From positions 1 to 27,465 of the forward strand of contig JBEKKX010000033.1 in NCBI GenBank assembly GCA_050010515.1: a DNA stretch of 27,465 bases, in the 5' to 3' direction. Positions 13,943 to 21,711 of this stretch are shown piece after piece. The number at the start of each line of letters is the position of its first letter. Position 1 is the first letter of the stretch. Under the pieces are notes generated by a model that saw only the letters and a program-made list of their open reading frames with translations, searched no databases and was not told the DNA's origin. Source of the DNA: Candidatus Bathyarchaeia archaeon. GTDB taxonomy: Archaea; Thermoproteota; Bathyarchaeia; Bathyarchaeales; Bathycorpusculaceae. Made by a program: the position numbers and the translations under genes.

Positions 13943-14572
13943 ATGCTTAAGCATGAACGACTCGGCAGGAGTAACCAAGACTCCGTTGCAATTGGTCTAT
14001 GCGGAGAGATGTATTCTGGGAAAGACACAGCCGCTGATTACATTGTTTCAAAATACGGTTTTAGGAAATTTAGTTACAGCACTGATGTTTTAAAGCCAAT
14101 AATCTCTTTTTGTCAAGGAAAAGAGACACGAGAAGTATACATTAATCTTGGCGCTTCGCTTGACAAAGTGTTTGGAGACTTTTGTCTTGACTCGCTTTTG
14201 CACAGAAGAATTAGCCAAGAAGCCAGCAAAAAAGTAGTAATTCCAAATATTAGGCTCTTTAACAATGTTGACTACTGGAAGAACGCGAGCGGCTTTGAGT
14301 TTTACTTAATTCTTGTGTTAGCAGAACAGAGGTTGAGGCTCAGCAGGTGGATGAAGCTATTGTCTGAGAAACCTTTGCACGAATATGACAAGGCGCTCAA
14401 GACCAAAGAGGATTTTGAGATTTTAAATAGGAAGGACTTGGAGGAGACGGATTTGTTTAATTTACTGCATAACCGAAAATTCGACTTTACAATTGTCAAC
14501 AACTCGGATTTAATGAACTTGTACGTTCAAATTGATACAATAATGAAGGTTATTGAAAAAAAGCCTACTTGA
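13943..14572 (+). CDS. P-loop nucleoside/deoxynucleoside-monophosphate kinase-like protein (dNMP kinase / UPF0200-like)
   Basis: IGLCGEMYSGKDTAADYI (Walker A), GFRKFSYS.DVLK, VVIPNIR, R..R lid, DFTIVNN. Confidence 0.8.
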   Translation: MLKHERLGRSNQDSVAIGLCGEMYSGKDTAADYIVSKYGFRKFSYSTDVLKPIISFCQGKETREVYINLGASLDKVFGDFCLDSLLHRRISQEASKKVVIPNIRLFNNVDYWKNASGFEFYLILVLAEQRLRLSRWMKLLSEKPLHEYDKALKTKEDFEILNRKDLEETDLFNLLHNRKFDFTIVNNSDLMNLYVQIDTIMKVIEKKPT

Positions 14573-14707
14573 TTTTCCCTCCTAAAAAATGAACACCAAA
14601 AGAGCTAGTCAGATGATTTCCCAATTAAAATTTTTACCAAACTTTCGGTATTTATGAGTTCATCGCTTATATAGATAATGAACTGAATATTAAGCGAGGT
14701 CATCAAG

Positions 14708-15052
14708 TTGGACTCTGCGGAAATGTTTGTTGCAATTGTAGGTTTGTCAGCTGCAACCTTAGTGATATTGTGTGCTATCTATTTAGATTACAGAGTCAAA
14801 TCTAAGAGGCTGACCCTAATTGGCAGAGGCATCTGGAAGATAGAGTATGACCAAACAAGACAGAAAAACGCTGTTCTTGCCGGTTCGGCTTTAATAGCAA
14901 TGGGGATATCAATTCTTGTCGGAACCTTCTCACCTGGTGGGGTTTGGTCCAGAATAGAGTTATCAGTAGGGTTAGCTCTTATAATGGTTGGAGGCATGTT
15001 TGTCGCAAATCATCTATTTAGGGACTGTCGCATGAATGCTAGCCAGAAGTGA
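14708..15052 (+). CDS. Small 3-TM membrane protein (DUF6249-like)
   Basis: TM, then KRLTLIGRG, then two TMs, resembling the DUF6249 pattern; overlaps the next gene's start. Confidence 0.6.
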   Translation: MDSAEMFVAIVGLSAATLVILCAIYLDYRVKSKRLTLIGRGIWKIEYDQTRQKNAVLAGSALIAMGISILVGTFSPGGVWSRIELSVGLALIMVGGMFVANHLFRDCRMNASQK

Positions 15053-16433
15053 AACAATGGATTCTTTCTTTGATGTTGTAATAGTCGGCGCCGGTCCTTC
15101 CGGCTTAATGGCTGCATATGAGCTTAGTTCTAAAACTAGATGCTCCATATGCATAATGGACATGGGAACTGAAGTTTCCTCAAGAGAGTGCGGACTCATA
15201 ACTTATGGAAAATGTCAAAGATGTGAAACTTGCAAGGTTGTTCACGGTTTTGCTGGGGCTGGTCTTTTTTCGGACGGAAAGCTTTGTTTATCTAACAAAG
15301 TTGGTGAGCGATTGGGGGATACGAACAAATTTACTCCTGCCCTCGTCAAAACAGTTGACAAATTCCTCGGGGTTCAGGCTCAGGAAAAACAAAGTTCAAA
15401 GAAACATGCCGATCGAATGAAGAAGATTGCAGATGAGGCAGGATTAGGTTTAGAACTTTATCCGGTGAAGGCAATACCGCATAAAGAATCCGTAGGTTTT
15501 CTTTCGGGATTACAGAGAGAAATCTACGCACGAAGGGTTACTTTCTATGCTAACGCCTATGTCTCAGAGTTTCATAAACTTCCTTCGGGAGAATGGGAGA
15601 CTGTTGCAAAAAAGCAAGGCGGAAATTTCATTATTCGATCTCGCTTTCTTCTCATAGGGATAGGAAAATCTGGATCTCGGTGGCTGATTGAACAGCTTTC
15701 TAAGCTAGGAGTAGAATCGAAGCCAACGGCTTTCTATTTTGGGGTTCGAATAGAAACCAAACGAGAAATAATGAATAATGTTATGAGATTATCATACAAC
15801 CCGAAGTTCTTCGCTGGAAAAGATGGTCCTTTTTATGTAAAGTCCCACTGCTTCGCGGAGGGCGGGTGCGTAATCGCCTATGTCTATGATGGCATAATAG
15901 TGGCTGGAGGGTTCACTGACAACACAAATAATACAAGTTTCTCTGTGCTGGTAAAGCATAACCCTCCTTTTCCCTTTCGTACAGTCGACTATTCGCGCTG
16001 GATGTGTGAGCTGATCAATCATTTAGGAAAGAACAAAGTTATTCTTCAAAGATTGGGCGATTTTAAAGAGGGAAGAGCGTCAAAAAGGATTGATATTGAG
16101 AACAATCTTGTTACGCCTACAATGAAAGATTATTCCCTTTATAATCTGTCATCTTTCTTTGAGAAGAACATCCGTTTTGTGATTCTGGATTTCATCAAAA
16201 AACTTGATTGTCTCTGCTCTGGTCTGGACAAGGAGTCAACACTTGTTTATGGTCCTGCTTCTGAGTGGGTTGTCGACAGAATCTCTCTTAACAGTGAGAT
16301 GGAGACAATTTGCGAGAACCTGTACGTGATAGGTGATGGATCCGGAGCAACGCAGGGGATCGTTGCAGCCGCCTCGACTGGACTCATAGCTGCACAGAGC
16401 GTAGCAGATAAAATTTCAAAGACTGTTATCTAA
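15036..16433 (+). CDS. FAD-dependent oxidoreductase (COG2509-like) with a Cys cluster
   Basis: DVVIVGAGPSG, C-x6-C-x2-C-x2-C, GFAGAGLFSDGKL, GVRIET, NLYVIGDGSGATQGIVAAASTG; start may be 15057. Confidence 0.9.
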   Translation: MLARSETMDSFFDVVIVGAGPSGLMAAYELSSKTRCSICIMDMGTEVSSRECGLITYGKCQRCETCKVVHGFAGAGLFSDGKLCLSNKVGERLGDTNKFTPALVKTVDKFLGVQAQEKQSSKKHADRMKKIADEAGLGLELYPVKAIPHKESVGFLSGLQREIYARRVTFYANAYVSEFHKLPSGEWETVAKKQGGNFIIRSRFLLIGIGKSGSRWLIEQLSKLGVESKPTAFYFGVRIETKREIMNNVMRLSYNPKFFAGKDGPFYVKSHCFAEGGCVIAYVYDGIIVAGGFTDNTNNTSFSVLVKHNPPFPFRTVDYSRWMCELINHLGKNKVILQRLGDFKEGRASKRIDIENNLVTPTMKDYSLYNLSSFFEKNIRFVILDFIKKLDCLCSGLDKESTLVYGPASEWVVDRISLNSEMETICENLYVIGDGSGATQGIVAAASTGLIAAQSVADKISKTVI

Positions 16434-16456
16434 TGAATTCTTGATATTCCATGTTC

Positions 16457-17107
16457 TTATAATCCGAGCAGTAGTTTCCCAATTAACAATCCCAATATTG
16501 CAATAACGATAGTAATGATTGTGAGGAACTGTGTATAGAAGCGGTCGACCTTTTTGGTAAGTTGAGTTTTCATCTCTTTAAAGTCGTCGCTGAGCGCCTT
16601 TAAACCACTCTCGGGCAAGATTTCTTTCACGACATCAGGAATATGATCAGAACGTTGGAATGCACCACTATACACTTCGGCAGTGCTTTGAGTAGTTTCG
16701 AATTCTATTGTTGCGAAAGTCTTATTGTAGGTGAGGATCACGGGTCTATCTGTCAAATTATAGAGCAGACAGAATAGTCTACCTTTATATCCAGGATCGA
16801 TTTGCGGTTCATTGTTCAAAACCAATCCCTTCATCGCCAGGCTAAATCTTAAACCAAACCGGGCAATCAAATTTTCTGGAATGTTGACTTTCTCTTGGGT
16901 GCAAACTACAACGAGGTCGTGCGCTGGAATCTCTAAGTATGGCGCTGTTTTTTCATCCAGTTTATAATATTGCCCCCCTCTTAGATACTCATCCCCTAAT
17001 CGCAGGTCATATGATGCAGGTTTCAAAGAATCAGGTTGGAAATCTTCAACTAGCGGTGGATCGATGTTGACTCGATTTAATATCTCACTCTTTGTTAGAA
17101 TTGGCAT
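16457..17107 (-). CDS. dCTP deaminase/dUTPase-fold protein with C-terminal coiled coil and TM helix; catalytic residues degenerate
   Basis: PASYDLRLG, TQEKVNIP, IDPGYKG, YSGAFQ; ends FLTIITIVIAILGLLIGKLLLGL; start adjusted to ATG 17107. Confidence 0.85.
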   Translation of the reverse strand: MPILTKSEILNRVNIDPPLVEDFQPDSLKPASYDLRLGDEYLRGGQYYKLDEKTAPYLEIPAHDLVVVCTQEKVNIPENLIARFGLRFSLAMKGLVLNNEPQIDPGYKGRLFCLLYNLTDRPVILTYNKTFATIEFETTQSTAEVYSGAFQRSDHIPDVVKEILPESGLKALSDDFKEMKTQLTKKVDRFYTQFLTIITIVIAILGLLIGKLLLGL

Positions 17108-20939: not shown

Positions 20940-21177
20940 CTCTGTTTAGGGTCTCTATTGTTGTCTTGTTCTTTTTTCTTCCCTTTGACTTAATTGAGGT
21001 TTCAAGGTCAGAACCCGTAAGGAGAGCTGCAAAGTGAGGTAACTCTTGTTTCGTCAGTTCTATTGCACTTACAGGCTTGGAAAAAATTATAAGCACCGAC
21101 GAGCTACCTGGAACCAACGAACTTCCAGAAATAGTAGATATTGACACTCCTGAATCAGTTTTTATTTTCATAGTCAT
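20920..21177 (-). CDS. Small hypothetical protein, translationally coupled to the IrrE gene
   Basis: 85-aa ATG ORF overlapping the peptidase start by 20 nt; basic C-terminus. Confidence 0.6.
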   Translation of the reverse strand: MTMKIKTDSGVSISTISGSSLVPGSSSVLIIFSKPVSAIELTKQELPHFAALLTGSDLETSIKSKGRKKNKTTIETLNRGGRKDE

Positions 21178-21291
21178 CGGAGATTGACTATATGCTGTTT
21201 AAACGGTAAGGTTTGCCCTTTCCTTTCGAAAGATTTTTCGGGAGAAATTAGCCCCTCTTCTTCGAGCAGTTTCGAAATTAGGGGAAAAATT

Positions 21292-21320
21292 AATAGACTA
21301 AGTCTAAACTTGAGTCTATT
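21292..21320. promoter_or_regulatory. Nested inverted repeats, putative operator
   Basis: AATAGACT (21292-21299) pairs with AGTCTATT (21313-21320); internal TAGACT-A-AGTCTA at 21294-21306; lies between divergent genes. Confidence 0.6.
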
Positions 21321-21327
21321 GATAAGA

Positions 21328-21711
21328 ATGAAATTTACTTGGAGAGGCAAGTGGCGAGAAGGAGAAATAACCGTAGAGGCAGAAACACGTGAAGAACTCG
21401 AAAGGGCTCTGCATGAACTACTCTTGGTCAAACAAGAAACGCGGGAAGCCCAAACAAACGATGAAAAGTTTCCTCATCTGCCAACGGGACTAGGCTGTTC
21501 AGATGCGATAAGGGCCCTTTTCCAAACTGATTGGGGTCGACTTTCCCCAAGATCAATGGCTGAGATTAACTCTGCACTAGAAGCAAATACAGTGCATTTG
21601 ACTAAGGGAAGTCTTTCGGGAACGCTCACATTGATGACTAAAAGAGAAGAACTTGAAAGACTCAAGAAGAAAGGAAAATGGGTTTATAGCTTAAGATCGG
21701 AGCAAACGTAG
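21328..21711 (+). CDS. Putative winged-helix DNA-binding protein
   Basis: C-terminal SDAIRALF...PRSMAEINSALE...SLSGTLTLMTKREELERLKKKGKWVYSL shows a helix-helix-helix-wing pattern; start adjusted to ATG 21328. Confidence 0.7.
   Translation: MKFTWRGKWREGEITVEAETREELERALHELLLVKQETREAQTNDEKFPHLPTGLGCSDAIRALFQTDWGRLSPRSMAEINSALEANTVHLTKGSLSGTLTLMTKREELERLKKKGKWVYSLRSEQT

Follow-up and report, generated by a model that had tools for sequence, protein, structure and literature searches.

A cluster of nine open reading frames (ORFs) located between a major facilitator superfamily (MFS) transporter gene and rps6e was analyzed in a stretch of DNA from a Candidatus Bathyarchaeia archaeon (GenBank assembly GCA_050010515.1, contig JBEKKX010000033.1). 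This stretch, designated as the window, is the whole 27,465-bp contig (C33) of a 2.38-Mb archaeal genome (G000; 98.5% complete), and the host is called a methanogen-like archaeon. The segment from 13801 to 21862 of the window was acquired horizontally as a single cassette and lies between the two flanking genes, at a recombination hot spot. Its co-evolving core consists of a dedicated flavoprotein with a small three-transmembrane (3-TM) partner, a tail-anchored protein with a Dcd fold, and a DNA glycosylase of the AAG/MPG family. The genes and features of the locus, with the short names used here, are as follows.

12477-13706, minus strand: MFS transporter gene, left neighbour of the island
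13790..13800, no strand: left copy of the 11-bp direct repeat ATAAATCCTTA, an att-like site or target duplication, present as one copy in empty sites
13814..13830, plus strand: left-end motif GGAGACATCTCCCGCAA, followed by a T-run; the same 17-mer lies at the same place in the islands of G046 (L017) and G043 (L018)
13943..14572, plus strand: P-loop nucleotide kinase-like protein of 209 aa, similar to DNMK and the AvcD kinase domain (kinase; Pfam, PADLOC)
14708..15052, plus strand: small 3-TM protein with three hydrophobic 19-mers and no family match; the gene overlaps the next one by 17 nt
15036..16433, plus strand: COG2509/VP0956-type flavin adenine dinucleotide (FAD) oxidoreductase with a conserved Cys-rich insert (C60, C63, C66, C84) (FAD protein, or flavoprotein)
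16457..17116, minus strand: tail-anchored Dcd-fold (dUTPase-like) protein, DCD fold at 2.4e-18 followed by a C-terminal transmembrane (TM) helix (Dcd-TM)
17155..17889, plus strand: AAG/MPG-family DNA glycosylase (P5; Pur_DNA_glyco 7.5e-54) (MPG)
18292..20031, plus strand: long SAMHD1-like HD phosphohydrolase of 579 aa with HD and HD_assoc_2 domains (HD; Pfam, phmmer)
20035..20090, no strand: inverted repeat of 16 nt, 94% complementary, with a 24-nt loop, between the convergent HD and M78 genes
20082..20939, minus strand: M78 (ImmA/IrrE/CapP-like) metallopeptidase with the motif HEMGH (M78; Pfam M78, PADLOC capP)
20920..21177, minus strand: putative 85-aa ORF, upstream of and overlapping the M78 gene
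21184..21711, plus strand: candidate winged helix-turn-helix (wHTH) repressor, divergent from the M78 operon; probable start ATG 21328
21863..21873, no strand: right copy of the 11-bp direct repeat ATAAATCCTTA, from junction alignments
21923-22315: rps6e, right neighbour of the island

All nine ORFs lie between the MFS gene and rps6e at these coordinates, and seven of the gene labels are backed by Pfam, PADLOC, NCBIfam, and hydrophobicity (six domain labels, and three segments in the small protein). The ORFs and most of the domain labels given by the original prediction, which had been made from the letters and translations of this DNA, are thus real; that of the wHTH is backed by a single lead and the 85-aa ORF by none of the analyses. 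A Fae-Hps fusion gene is also located on the contig.

The insert spans 8,062 bp (13801-21862) between the two copies of the direct repeat. Junction alignments revealed a single copy of ATAAATCCTTA in the empty sites of three congeners (G004, G003, and G013) and two copies in the window, which bracket the insert; the whole genome contains only three exact copies. Window positions 8600-27400 were compared with 30 congeners by blastn, and the site counts were read from the matches listed. Conserved blocks extend up to 13800 and from 21863 on, and among the matches listed no congener DNA matched within 13846-21860. On the same basis, the distance between the MFS gene and rps6e is at most 0.6 kb in 21 congeners and ~1.3 kb in 2, while 2 of the 30 carry unrelated inserts of 5.2 kb (G046) and 10.2 kb (G043); in the other 5 the two sides are on separate contigs or unlisted. 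At the protein level, neither Dcd-TM nor the long HD has a close homologue among 40 relatives. The segment has the marks of a genomic island, being flanked by direct repeats, missing from the site in relatives, and replaced there by other cargo in some of them. The description of these genes as non-core is therefore upheld, and they are not a vertically inherited part of the lineage's core. The island has a GC content of 0.398, lower than the 0.426 of the genome.

Metagenomes also showed that the site varies between strains. A near-identical island was found in 20 runs of 19 peat, wetland, and soil studies (8 possibly the source), and the island contigs were identical to the window in all four runs aligned. 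In two runs (X12 and X10) the flanks are up to ~25-fold deeper, owing to ~94%-identical relatives that leave the reference at 13705-13710, and loose ends at 21861-21863 occur in runs X12, X10, and X9. One of the loose ends is a G046-type junction and another resembles the G043 type. The data sets listed as carrying the island include no RNA data. Within the window, tRNA and Rfam scans found nothing, and a scan for sigma-70 promoters and terminators did not rise above shuffled sequences. The repeat scan within the insert gave only the hairpin between HD and M78, and the insert contains no integrase, replication, or structural genes.

The motif GGAGACATCTCCCGCAA opens all three occupied MFS/rps6e sites. 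One left-end 17-mer in all three islands argues for a common integration mechanism, although the window insert has no integrase. The three islands carry different cargo and share both the 11-bp repeat and the 17-nt motif, and a recognizable integrase is present in none of them. The G046 island encodes an S8 subtilase and an M29-like peptidase, and that of G043 a DUF4760 protein and a TFIIB-repeat protein. Relatives of the motif with at most two mismatches are located elsewhere in the genome (C8:1030 and 2199, and C16:4080). The copies on C8 adjoin sequences that resemble the 3' halves of tRNAs (GGGGTTCAAATCCCACC...), where ARAGORN detected no tRNA. These copies on C8 and C16 may, from their sequence, be att remnants of the same element family. 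The left-end motif is absent from the distant cluster loci examined.

Gene neighbourhoods were compared in 11 dereplicated loci whose Dcd-TM is at least 39% identical to that of the window. The window's own copy (L065), duplicates of at least 90% identity, L080 (38.8%), and the partial matches L020 and L144 were left out. The MPG gene adjoins Dcd-TM in 10 loci and the FAD gene in 9, and both loci lacking the latter have less than 130 bp of flank on that side; the 3-TM gene was found in 3, HD in 2, and the kinase and M78 in a single locus each. Adjacency of the FAD, Dcd-TM, and MPG genes persists in relatives down to 42% identity. In L066 (70% identity, on a 1.1-Mb contig), the kinase, 3-TM, FAD, Dcd, and MPG genes occur in the window order at another genomic place, with a Fic/SoFic gene nearby. 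L078 (42%) is collinear on one strand, with FAD, Dcd-TM, MPG, one ORF, HD, and M78. In L085 and L027, a fusion of the kinase with Dcd-TM is located next to HD, FAD, and a DNA methylase, and HD also neighbours Dcd-TM in L081. Seven of the top 12 FAD homologues, and HD homologues with 86%, 85%, and 43% identity, are on contigs equal in size to Dcd-TM-bearing contigs. Co-occurrence of key members in distant genomes, which the original prediction had proposed as a check, was thus found (L078, L085, and the plasmids described below), and the core is very probably a real, conserved, and mobile gene set. The core or its wider family is recurrently joined by a kinase, a second hydrolase of deoxynucleoside triphosphates (dNTPs; HD or MazG), a glycosylase (MPG or UDG), and M78 with a helix-turn-helix (HTH) protein. 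In L080, an integrase gene neighbours the Dcd-TM gene. Assignment of the clusters as MADS-like systems was rejected, as the 'mad2' matches came from a generic methylase ('mad3' matches were untraced to proteins).

The AlphaFold 2 model of Dcd-TM (mean predicted local distance difference test score 88.8) shows a Dcd/dUTPase jelly-roll followed by a 47-residue helix. The top Foldseek matches were dUTPases and Dcd proteins with a probability of 1.00, and the best were Thermococcales dUTPases: 9ln0 (E value 5.6e-14, TM-score 0.90 by target length, 30% identity) and also 8y1w. The protein has the features of a trimeric dUTPase/Dcd, namely the jelly-roll, the DPG..G..N motif, and a C-terminal lid motif. 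D128, P129, G130, G133, and N141 are among the invariant columns of its family. E138 is the catalytic glutamate of E. coli Dcd, in agreement with the PDB titles of the E138A and E138D variants. Of the 13 members of the Dcd-TM family aligned, none has Glu in the corresponding column, which holds L, I, T, P, G, or M; in the four plasmid members it is S or I. The archaeal subfamily also differs at S111 and R115. The TIGR02274 model of dCTP deaminases gave 77.8 bits against a cut-off of 92.8 (74.9 bits, also under the cut-off, in the whole-genome scan). Because the catalytic Glu is absent and the best structural matches are Thermococcales dUTPases, Dcd-TM is not a plausible dCTP deaminase. On the basis of sequence and model, its domain is probably a nucleotide-binding one, of pyrophosphatase type or a sensor. 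It shares the fold of the Thermococcales dUTPases (8y1w, 9ln0) and of canonical Dcd and DCD-DUT proteins and keeps the DPG..G..N and Y-x-G-x-Y-Q lid motifs; unlike them, it has ~60 extra C-terminal residues that form a long helix ending in a TM segment. The island protein is the sole trimeric dUTPase/Dcd matched in this genome, and among 24 congeners only 4 gave a match to Dcd-TM, a weak one.

Only ~18 close relatives of Dcd-TM, with 39-73% identity and the same length and tail, were found among 5.8 billion clusters. The same architecture occurs at ~30% identity in 102 dereplicated loci fetched from archaea and many bacterial phyla, with a C-terminal TM helix by strict assignment in 80 and a hydrophobic segment beyond residue 150 in 94. 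Most of these wider-family members are solo genes. PurA-like adenylosuccinate synthetases recur beside the family in 14 loci and are in some cases fused to a kinase; other recurrent neighbours are an RNaseH-like/DUF429/kinase protein, DUF7002, and long CapP-like M78 proteins. M78 accompanies the family in the PurA-type loci L020, L114, and L144 and on two plasmids. In 13 loci (10 dereplicated), an IS1-like DDE transposase gene lies directly upstream of a solo Dcd-TM gene, on the same strand and at 8-150 bp, so that the solo gene looks like a passenger of an insertion sequence (IS) element; L029, L044, L094, L103, L105/L106, L135, and L138/L142 are among these loci. Two bacterial operon types were also observed among L020, L086, L114, and L144 and L021, L022, L040, L101, and L108. 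One consists of a CapP-like M78, a kinase-PurA-like fusion, DUF7002, a 243-aa ORF, and Dcd-TM, and the other of the RNaseH-like/DUF429/kinase protein, a PurA-like protein, and a Dcd-fold protein with two TM helices. Three members of 300-313 aa (L032, L100, and L134) have no TM helix and end in a winged-helix-like tail (…LERQGFIEGG… or …LEKKGLIEG…).

On three alphaproteobacterial plasmids, L161 (R. leguminosarum), L164 (Acuticoccus), and L163, Dcd-TM adjoins a uracil-DNA glycosylase (UDG). Two of the three, whose UDGs are 55% identical, also carry HTH, ImmA/IrrE, and C1 peptidase genes, and one has MazG. These sets indicate that the combination of Dcd-TM, a DNA glycosylase, a second dNTP hydrolase, and M78/HTH reappears with non-homologous parts. 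A hypothetical protein also belongs to the plasmid gene set, and on one plasmid the set lies beside replication genes. In phage records, none of the 46 with a match covered at least 80% of Dcd-TM; the matches were confined to the catalytic domain at no more than 31% identity. A pattern-limited search of a viral contig collection found no relative.

The flavoprotein has VP0956 (3nlc) as its sole sequence match among solved structures. The fold search also gave VP0956, a protein of unknown function, followed by GMC-type sugar and sterol oxidases at TM-scores of ~0.45-0.5, and the latter similarity is a model-based lead rather than an assignment. About 15 close homologues were found, after which identity drops to at most 34% with housekeeping COG2509 proteins. 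In a quick maximum-likelihood tree of the listed rows, the cluster-linked proteins form one clade (100 in the Shimodaira-Hasegawa-like approximate likelihood ratio test) apart from housekeeping COG2509 and the genome's own paralogue, with L085 and L027 on very long branches. The subfamily has a Cys-rich insert at residues 52-84 (C52, C60, C63, C66, and C84), in which C60 is invariant and C66 and C84 are nearly so. The insert is disordered in the AlphaFold model and may be a metal or Fe-S site. In L066, L070, and L073, the gene immediately before the FAD gene encodes a homologue of the 3-TM protein. The kinase matches the Pfam model DNMK at 8.7e-4, under the cut-off, and the kinase region of the PADLOC 'dCTPase' model at 1.4e-7, where only positions 148-298 of 630 are matched. 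Its Walker A sequence is GEMYSGKD, and we take the GK-D loop to be of the phage DNMK type (the P-loop of T4 dNMP kinase). A 67% identical homologue occupies the same position in L066.

MPG scores above the AAG/MPG cut-offs (TIGR00567, 169.8 against 116.35 bits; Pfam PF02245, 182.3 bits). As the Pfam match begins at residue 45, the start is likely at a Met codon in 17209-17221. Aligned to human AAG, the protein keeps ETE-x-Y, ASHA, YGMY, and V-R-A, which presumably correspond to E125, Y127, H136, Y162, and R182 of AAG (the catalytic Glu, Tyr, and His and the intercalating Tyr). It is 41-42% identical to the MPGs of congeners against 70% to the cluster-linked MPG of L066. In a tree of the listed rows, cluster-linked MPGs fall into two supported groups, one of which is nested among housekeeping MPGs. 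The HD signature H..HD..D is intact (RLEHS, LLHDVG, and DLLDYSRRD), and residues 21-392 align to SAMHD1 by phmmer. The best PDB matches were 9mr6, titled 'HD domain-containing protein' (1.6e-25), and SAMHD1 (1.1e-22 and weaker). The Dgt-type models were not reached (NCBIfam antiphage_dGTPase, 21.5 against 400 bits; dGTP_triPase, 38.6 against 152.35 bits). A housekeeping HD of 428 aa (C7:1515-3473 in G000), conserved across the 41 genomes searched, adjoins a thymidylate kinase gene in divergent orientation, and this pair is the housekeeping counterpart of the island HD-kinase pairing. An operon of this HD with the housekeeping FAD paralogue on C7 was considered and rejected, since an ABC transporter gene and a PadR gene lie between them and the HD is paired with the thymidylate kinase. 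The claim that each of the four nucleotide- or base-acting proteins departs from the housekeeping consensus at key residues thus holds for the Dcd fold (E138, S111, and R115) and fails for MPG and HD, whose residues are kept; the kinase loop is of the phage DNMK type.

At the other end of the island, M78 matches the Pfam model at 3.5e-4 (20.8 bits, cut-off 22) and PADLOC capP at 4.3e-12, and its HExxH motif is located at residue 109. The capP model also matches the peptidases of L078 (5.7e-14) and L020 (2.1e-19), and the 27% identical M78 homologue of L078 directly follows the HD gene. The inverted repeat between HD and M78 is likely, from its sequence and position, a bidirectional terminator. 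The 85-aa ORF has no family match in Pfam, PADLOC, and NCBIfam and no homologue in the fetched loci except same-genome copies, so that it is unverified as a gene. The wHTH has no Pfam match, and the one lead to it came from the Atlas, in which archaeal hypothetical clusters were matched, one with PF03965 Penicillinase_R (BlaI-type) in 43% of its members. The 191-aa and 80-aa ORFs of L078 are unlike the window wHTH, and the 80-aa ORF is also unlike the 85-aa ORF. The pairing in the window is thus one of an M78 having a capP match and HEMGH with an adjoining candidate wHTH known from the Atlas lead.

A second strain-specific insert of 1.27 kb (22447-23715) directly follows rps6e. It contains a DUF4760 gene (22847-23245; 1e-9) and a repeat of ~190 bp, and contigs in two metagenome runs join 22446 to 23716, skipping this insert. 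The ~190-bp sequence is a multi-copy element whose copies are 78-86% identical. It is located at 22542-22730 and 3818-4006 of the window and at C22:64739-64921 and C30:3624-3813 of G000, in addition to partial copies; G016 contributed six of the copies listed, and G003 and G041 several. The element resembles a miniature inverted-repeat transposable element, and one of its frames ends in a recombinase-like '...ALMGHKLGA'.

Comparison with known systems places the cassette near several of them and within none. Mobile and divergent DNA glycosylases defend against phages with modified bases (10.64898/2026.01.15.699771; 10.1101/2025.10.29.685425; 10.64898/2026.02.25.707755; PMC11078745), and Brig3 works with a helper base-modifying enzyme, BapA. 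Like Brig1, Brig3, Dag1, Dag2, and the integron UDG-like proteins, the window MPG is divergent, mobile, and unlike the housekeeping copy, and like Brig and Dag it resides in a variable, slightly AT-rich region. As with Brig3 and BapA, it is accompanied in an operon by enzymes that could prepare its substrate; the plasmid relatives use UDG. The Dag paper places all defence-active Dags in the helix-hairpin-helix superfamily and describes UDG-like ones separately (10.1101/2025.10.29.685425). The window MPG, unlike Dag, has the AAG/MPG fold, and no AAG-fold defence glycosylase appears in the passages of these sources examined. Its partners also differ from those of Brig and Dag (flavoprotein, Dcd-TM, kinase, and HD), and its activity and target base are putative. 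The analogy to AvcD drawn by the original prediction stands for the kinase, which matches the kinase-like region of the PADLOC dCTPase model, and the fusion of the kinase with a 'dCTP-deaminase-fold' domain in L085 mimics the AvcD domain order. It does not extend to the deaminase: by Pfam, none of the nine proteins contains a Zn-dependent CDA deaminase domain, and the Dcd fold lacks the catalytic Glu. As with Dgt-type dGTPases, the window has a dNTP triphosphohydrolase-like HD, but a SAMHD1-like and not a Dgt-like one.

CapP and CapH are reported to regulate many immune operons upon DNA damage. As in CapP/CapH, ImmA/ImmR, and IrrE/DdrO, an M78 protein with HExxH is located beside a divergent small DNA-binding-like protein; unlike CapP/CapH, the partner is not a recognizable XRE-type HTH, there is no CBASS, and cleavage of the partner is putative. 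In Kongming, which comprises the deaminase KomA, KomB, and the SIR2 protein KomC, the sensor of dITP is KomB, of the non-canonical NTP pyrophosphatase fold, and a nucleotide kinase and a base-modifying step matter. Here the likeness is in logic only, in that a deaminase-dead Dcd fold with a TM helix could likewise sense a modified dNTP; unlike Kongming, the window has no adenosine deaminase, HAM1/ITPase-like protein, or SIR2, and no Kongming-type PADLOC match. PADLOC applied to the FAD, HD, and Dcd proteins of L085 and L078 gave only generic methyltransferase, kinase, and capP matches. A combined-term literature search found no description of the gene set, while supplementary tables of glycosylase and defence-discovery papers could list AAG-fold or Dcd-TM candidates. 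In agreement with what had been expected, no described system with this combination was thus found by PADLOC-DB or in the literature.

We infer, tentatively, that the cassette is a conserved multi-gene system acting on deoxynucleotides and DNA bases and serving antiviral defence under a CapP-like switch. In such a system, the wHTH would keep the cassette repressed. An infection or damaged DNA would trigger cleavage of this repressor by the M78 peptidase, by analogy with CapP and CapH. Thereafter, the HD and the dUTPase-like, deaminase-dead Dcd-fold protein would bind or hydrolyse dNTPs, preferably non-canonical ones needed by viruses with modified genomes, and the AAG-fold glycosylase would excise the corresponding base from viral DNA to leave abasic sites. 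The flavoprotein and the kinase may be helpers in the manner of BapA for Brig3, producing a substrate from a modified nucleotide or base. Through its membrane anchor, the Dcd-fold protein would either hold this chemistry at the membrane or be itself a nucleotide-sensing membrane effector. A doubtful variant takes the latter option further, with Dcd-TM proteins as widespread, undescribed nucleotide-sensing membrane effectors; during infection, the flavoprotein, kinase, and HD would make or shape a non-canonical deoxynucleotide as the signal, the Dcd-fold trimer would read it and breach the membrane, and the AAG glycosylase would attack modified viral DNA. Damage inducibility, the making or sensing of a non-canonical nucleotide, and a membrane effector, all of which the original prediction had assigned to these genes, are conceivable in these schemes and are kept here as suppositions.

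Several observations weigh against antiviral defence by a coherent system. PADLOC-DB v2.0.0 (2023) has no match for the 3-TM, FAD, Dcd-TM, MPG, 85-aa, and wHTH proteins, no known defence gene marks the core, and the low GC content is mild, being equalled in 7.6% of same-size genome windows. The kinase, HD, and M78 are each found in just 1-2 of the 11 subfamily loci, and L066, the closest long relative, has the five-gene block with neither HD nor M78. With 1,256 matches at E ≤ 1e-20, some of them housekeeping forms, the long HD family far exceeds the Dcd-TM subfamily in size. An approximately unbiased (AU) test, in which the group was named after the tree was seen, did not reject a single clade of cluster-linked MPGs (p = 0.061), so that their repeated recruitment is no more than a suggestion. 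The catalytic residues of MPG and HD are the ordinary ones, MPG is the only one in the genome, a housekeeping MPG is found elsewhere in 15 of 24 congeners, and a genome-wide search with PF00692 and TIGR02274 found no trimeric dUTPase/Dcd besides the island protein. On a Priestia plasmid, a member of the Dcd-TM family lies beside a translesion-polymerase operon.

Some of these points favour the main rival, a serious one although we consider it unlikely, in which the cassette is a mobile set for nucleotide sanitation and base-excision repair with no antiviral role. The dUTPase-like protein and HD would keep deoxyuridine triphosphate (dUTP) and other non-canonical dNTPs low, MPG would remove hypoxanthine and alkylated purines, and M78/wHTH would induce the genes after DNA damage, like IrrE/DdrO, in a host otherwise devoid of these functions. 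Indeed, by structure and by profile the Dcd fold is matched best by genuine dUTPases (9ln0 and 8y1w), and in a genome with no other PF00692/TIGR02274 match and no second MPG the cassette could be no more than a source of repair and sanitation functions. G003 and G004, the closest congeners sampled, also have no MPG, whereas 15 of 24 genomes of the genus have one. The intact AAG catalytic residues, the pairing of UDG with MazG (classic sanitation and repair enzymes) on plasmids, and the Priestia translesion polymerase, a divergent neighbour with a YolD partner, point in the same direction. A sanitizer of soluble pools, however, has no obvious need for the tail anchor retained in 80 of 102 family loci, nor a place for the dedicated, co-evolving flavoprotein and its 3-TM partner. 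Moreover, the genes occupy a polymorphic hot spot with IS and integrase neighbours, and 20 of 24 congeners have no match to Dcd-TM and the site is mostly empty, which indicates that the function is dispensable in the lineage.

The suspicion that the island comprises two or three modules was partly right, since the five-gene block travels without HD and M78 in L066 and the long HD family is far larger. Carried to the end, it gives a mosaic of two or three independent modules sharing a hot spot or mobile element, which we regard as rather improbable: the kinase, 3-TM, FAD, Dcd-TM, and MPG; a stand-alone long HD dNTPase; and the M78/wHTH pair. L066 indeed has the first block alone within 10 kb on either side, more than 100 long-HD clusters at ≥35% identity are mostly on contigs matching no Dcd-TM contig in size, the gene orientations are mixed, and most wider-family Dcd-TM genes are solo. 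Yet in L078, at 27-48% identity, HD and M78 come after FAD, Dcd-TM, and MPG in collinear order, HD neighbours Dcd-TM in L081, L085, and L027, and the closest HD homologues (86% and 85%) are on contigs of 11,593 and 21,619 bp, size-matched to those of 72%-identical Dcd-TM homologues. M78 likewise recurs with the family in L020, L114, L144, and two plasmids, and a single pair of direct repeats bounds all nine genes. Far less probable still is a remnant of a viral or mobile-element pathway for modified DNA, kept as counter-defence or self-marking cargo. By T4-like logic, a dNTP pyrophosphatase would yield a dNMP, the base would be modified, a DNMK-type kinase would re-phosphorylate it, and HD would exclude the canonical dNTP. 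The DNMK-like P-loop, the dUTPase-like Dcd fold, the pairing of the family with PurA-like enzymes and kinases in relatives, and the DNA methylase in place of MPG in L085 and L027 are consistent with such a pathway, and ImmA/ImmR-type switches are typical of integrated elements. It is difficult to reconcile with the viral contig and phage searches (no relative in the former, pattern-limited search; 0 of 46 records at 80% coverage in the latter), the lack of integrase, replication, and structural genes in the insert, and a catalytically intact glycosylase, which would be odd in a modification pathway.

If the preferred reading of an antiviral system under a CapP-like switch is true, glycosylase- and nucleotide-pool-based antiviral immunity would reach archaea and a fourth glycosylase superfamily (AAG). 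If Dcd-TM proteins are sensor-effectors, the cassette would contain the first AAG-superfamily defence glycosylase and represent a new class of multi-gene immunity common to archaea and bacteria. The analysis defines a new protein family, with a membrane-anchored Dcd/dUTPase fold lacking the deaminase residue, and gives a first functional handle on the uncharacterized COG2509/VP0956 flavoproteins. The non-homologous swaps (MPG for UDG, HD for MazG, and the kinase separate or fused) are a testable case of conserved functional logic. Whatever the function, the MFS/rps6e site is a clean archaeal integration hot spot where at least three types of cargo share an end motif, and its alternative junctions co-occur in peat and wetland metagenomes.

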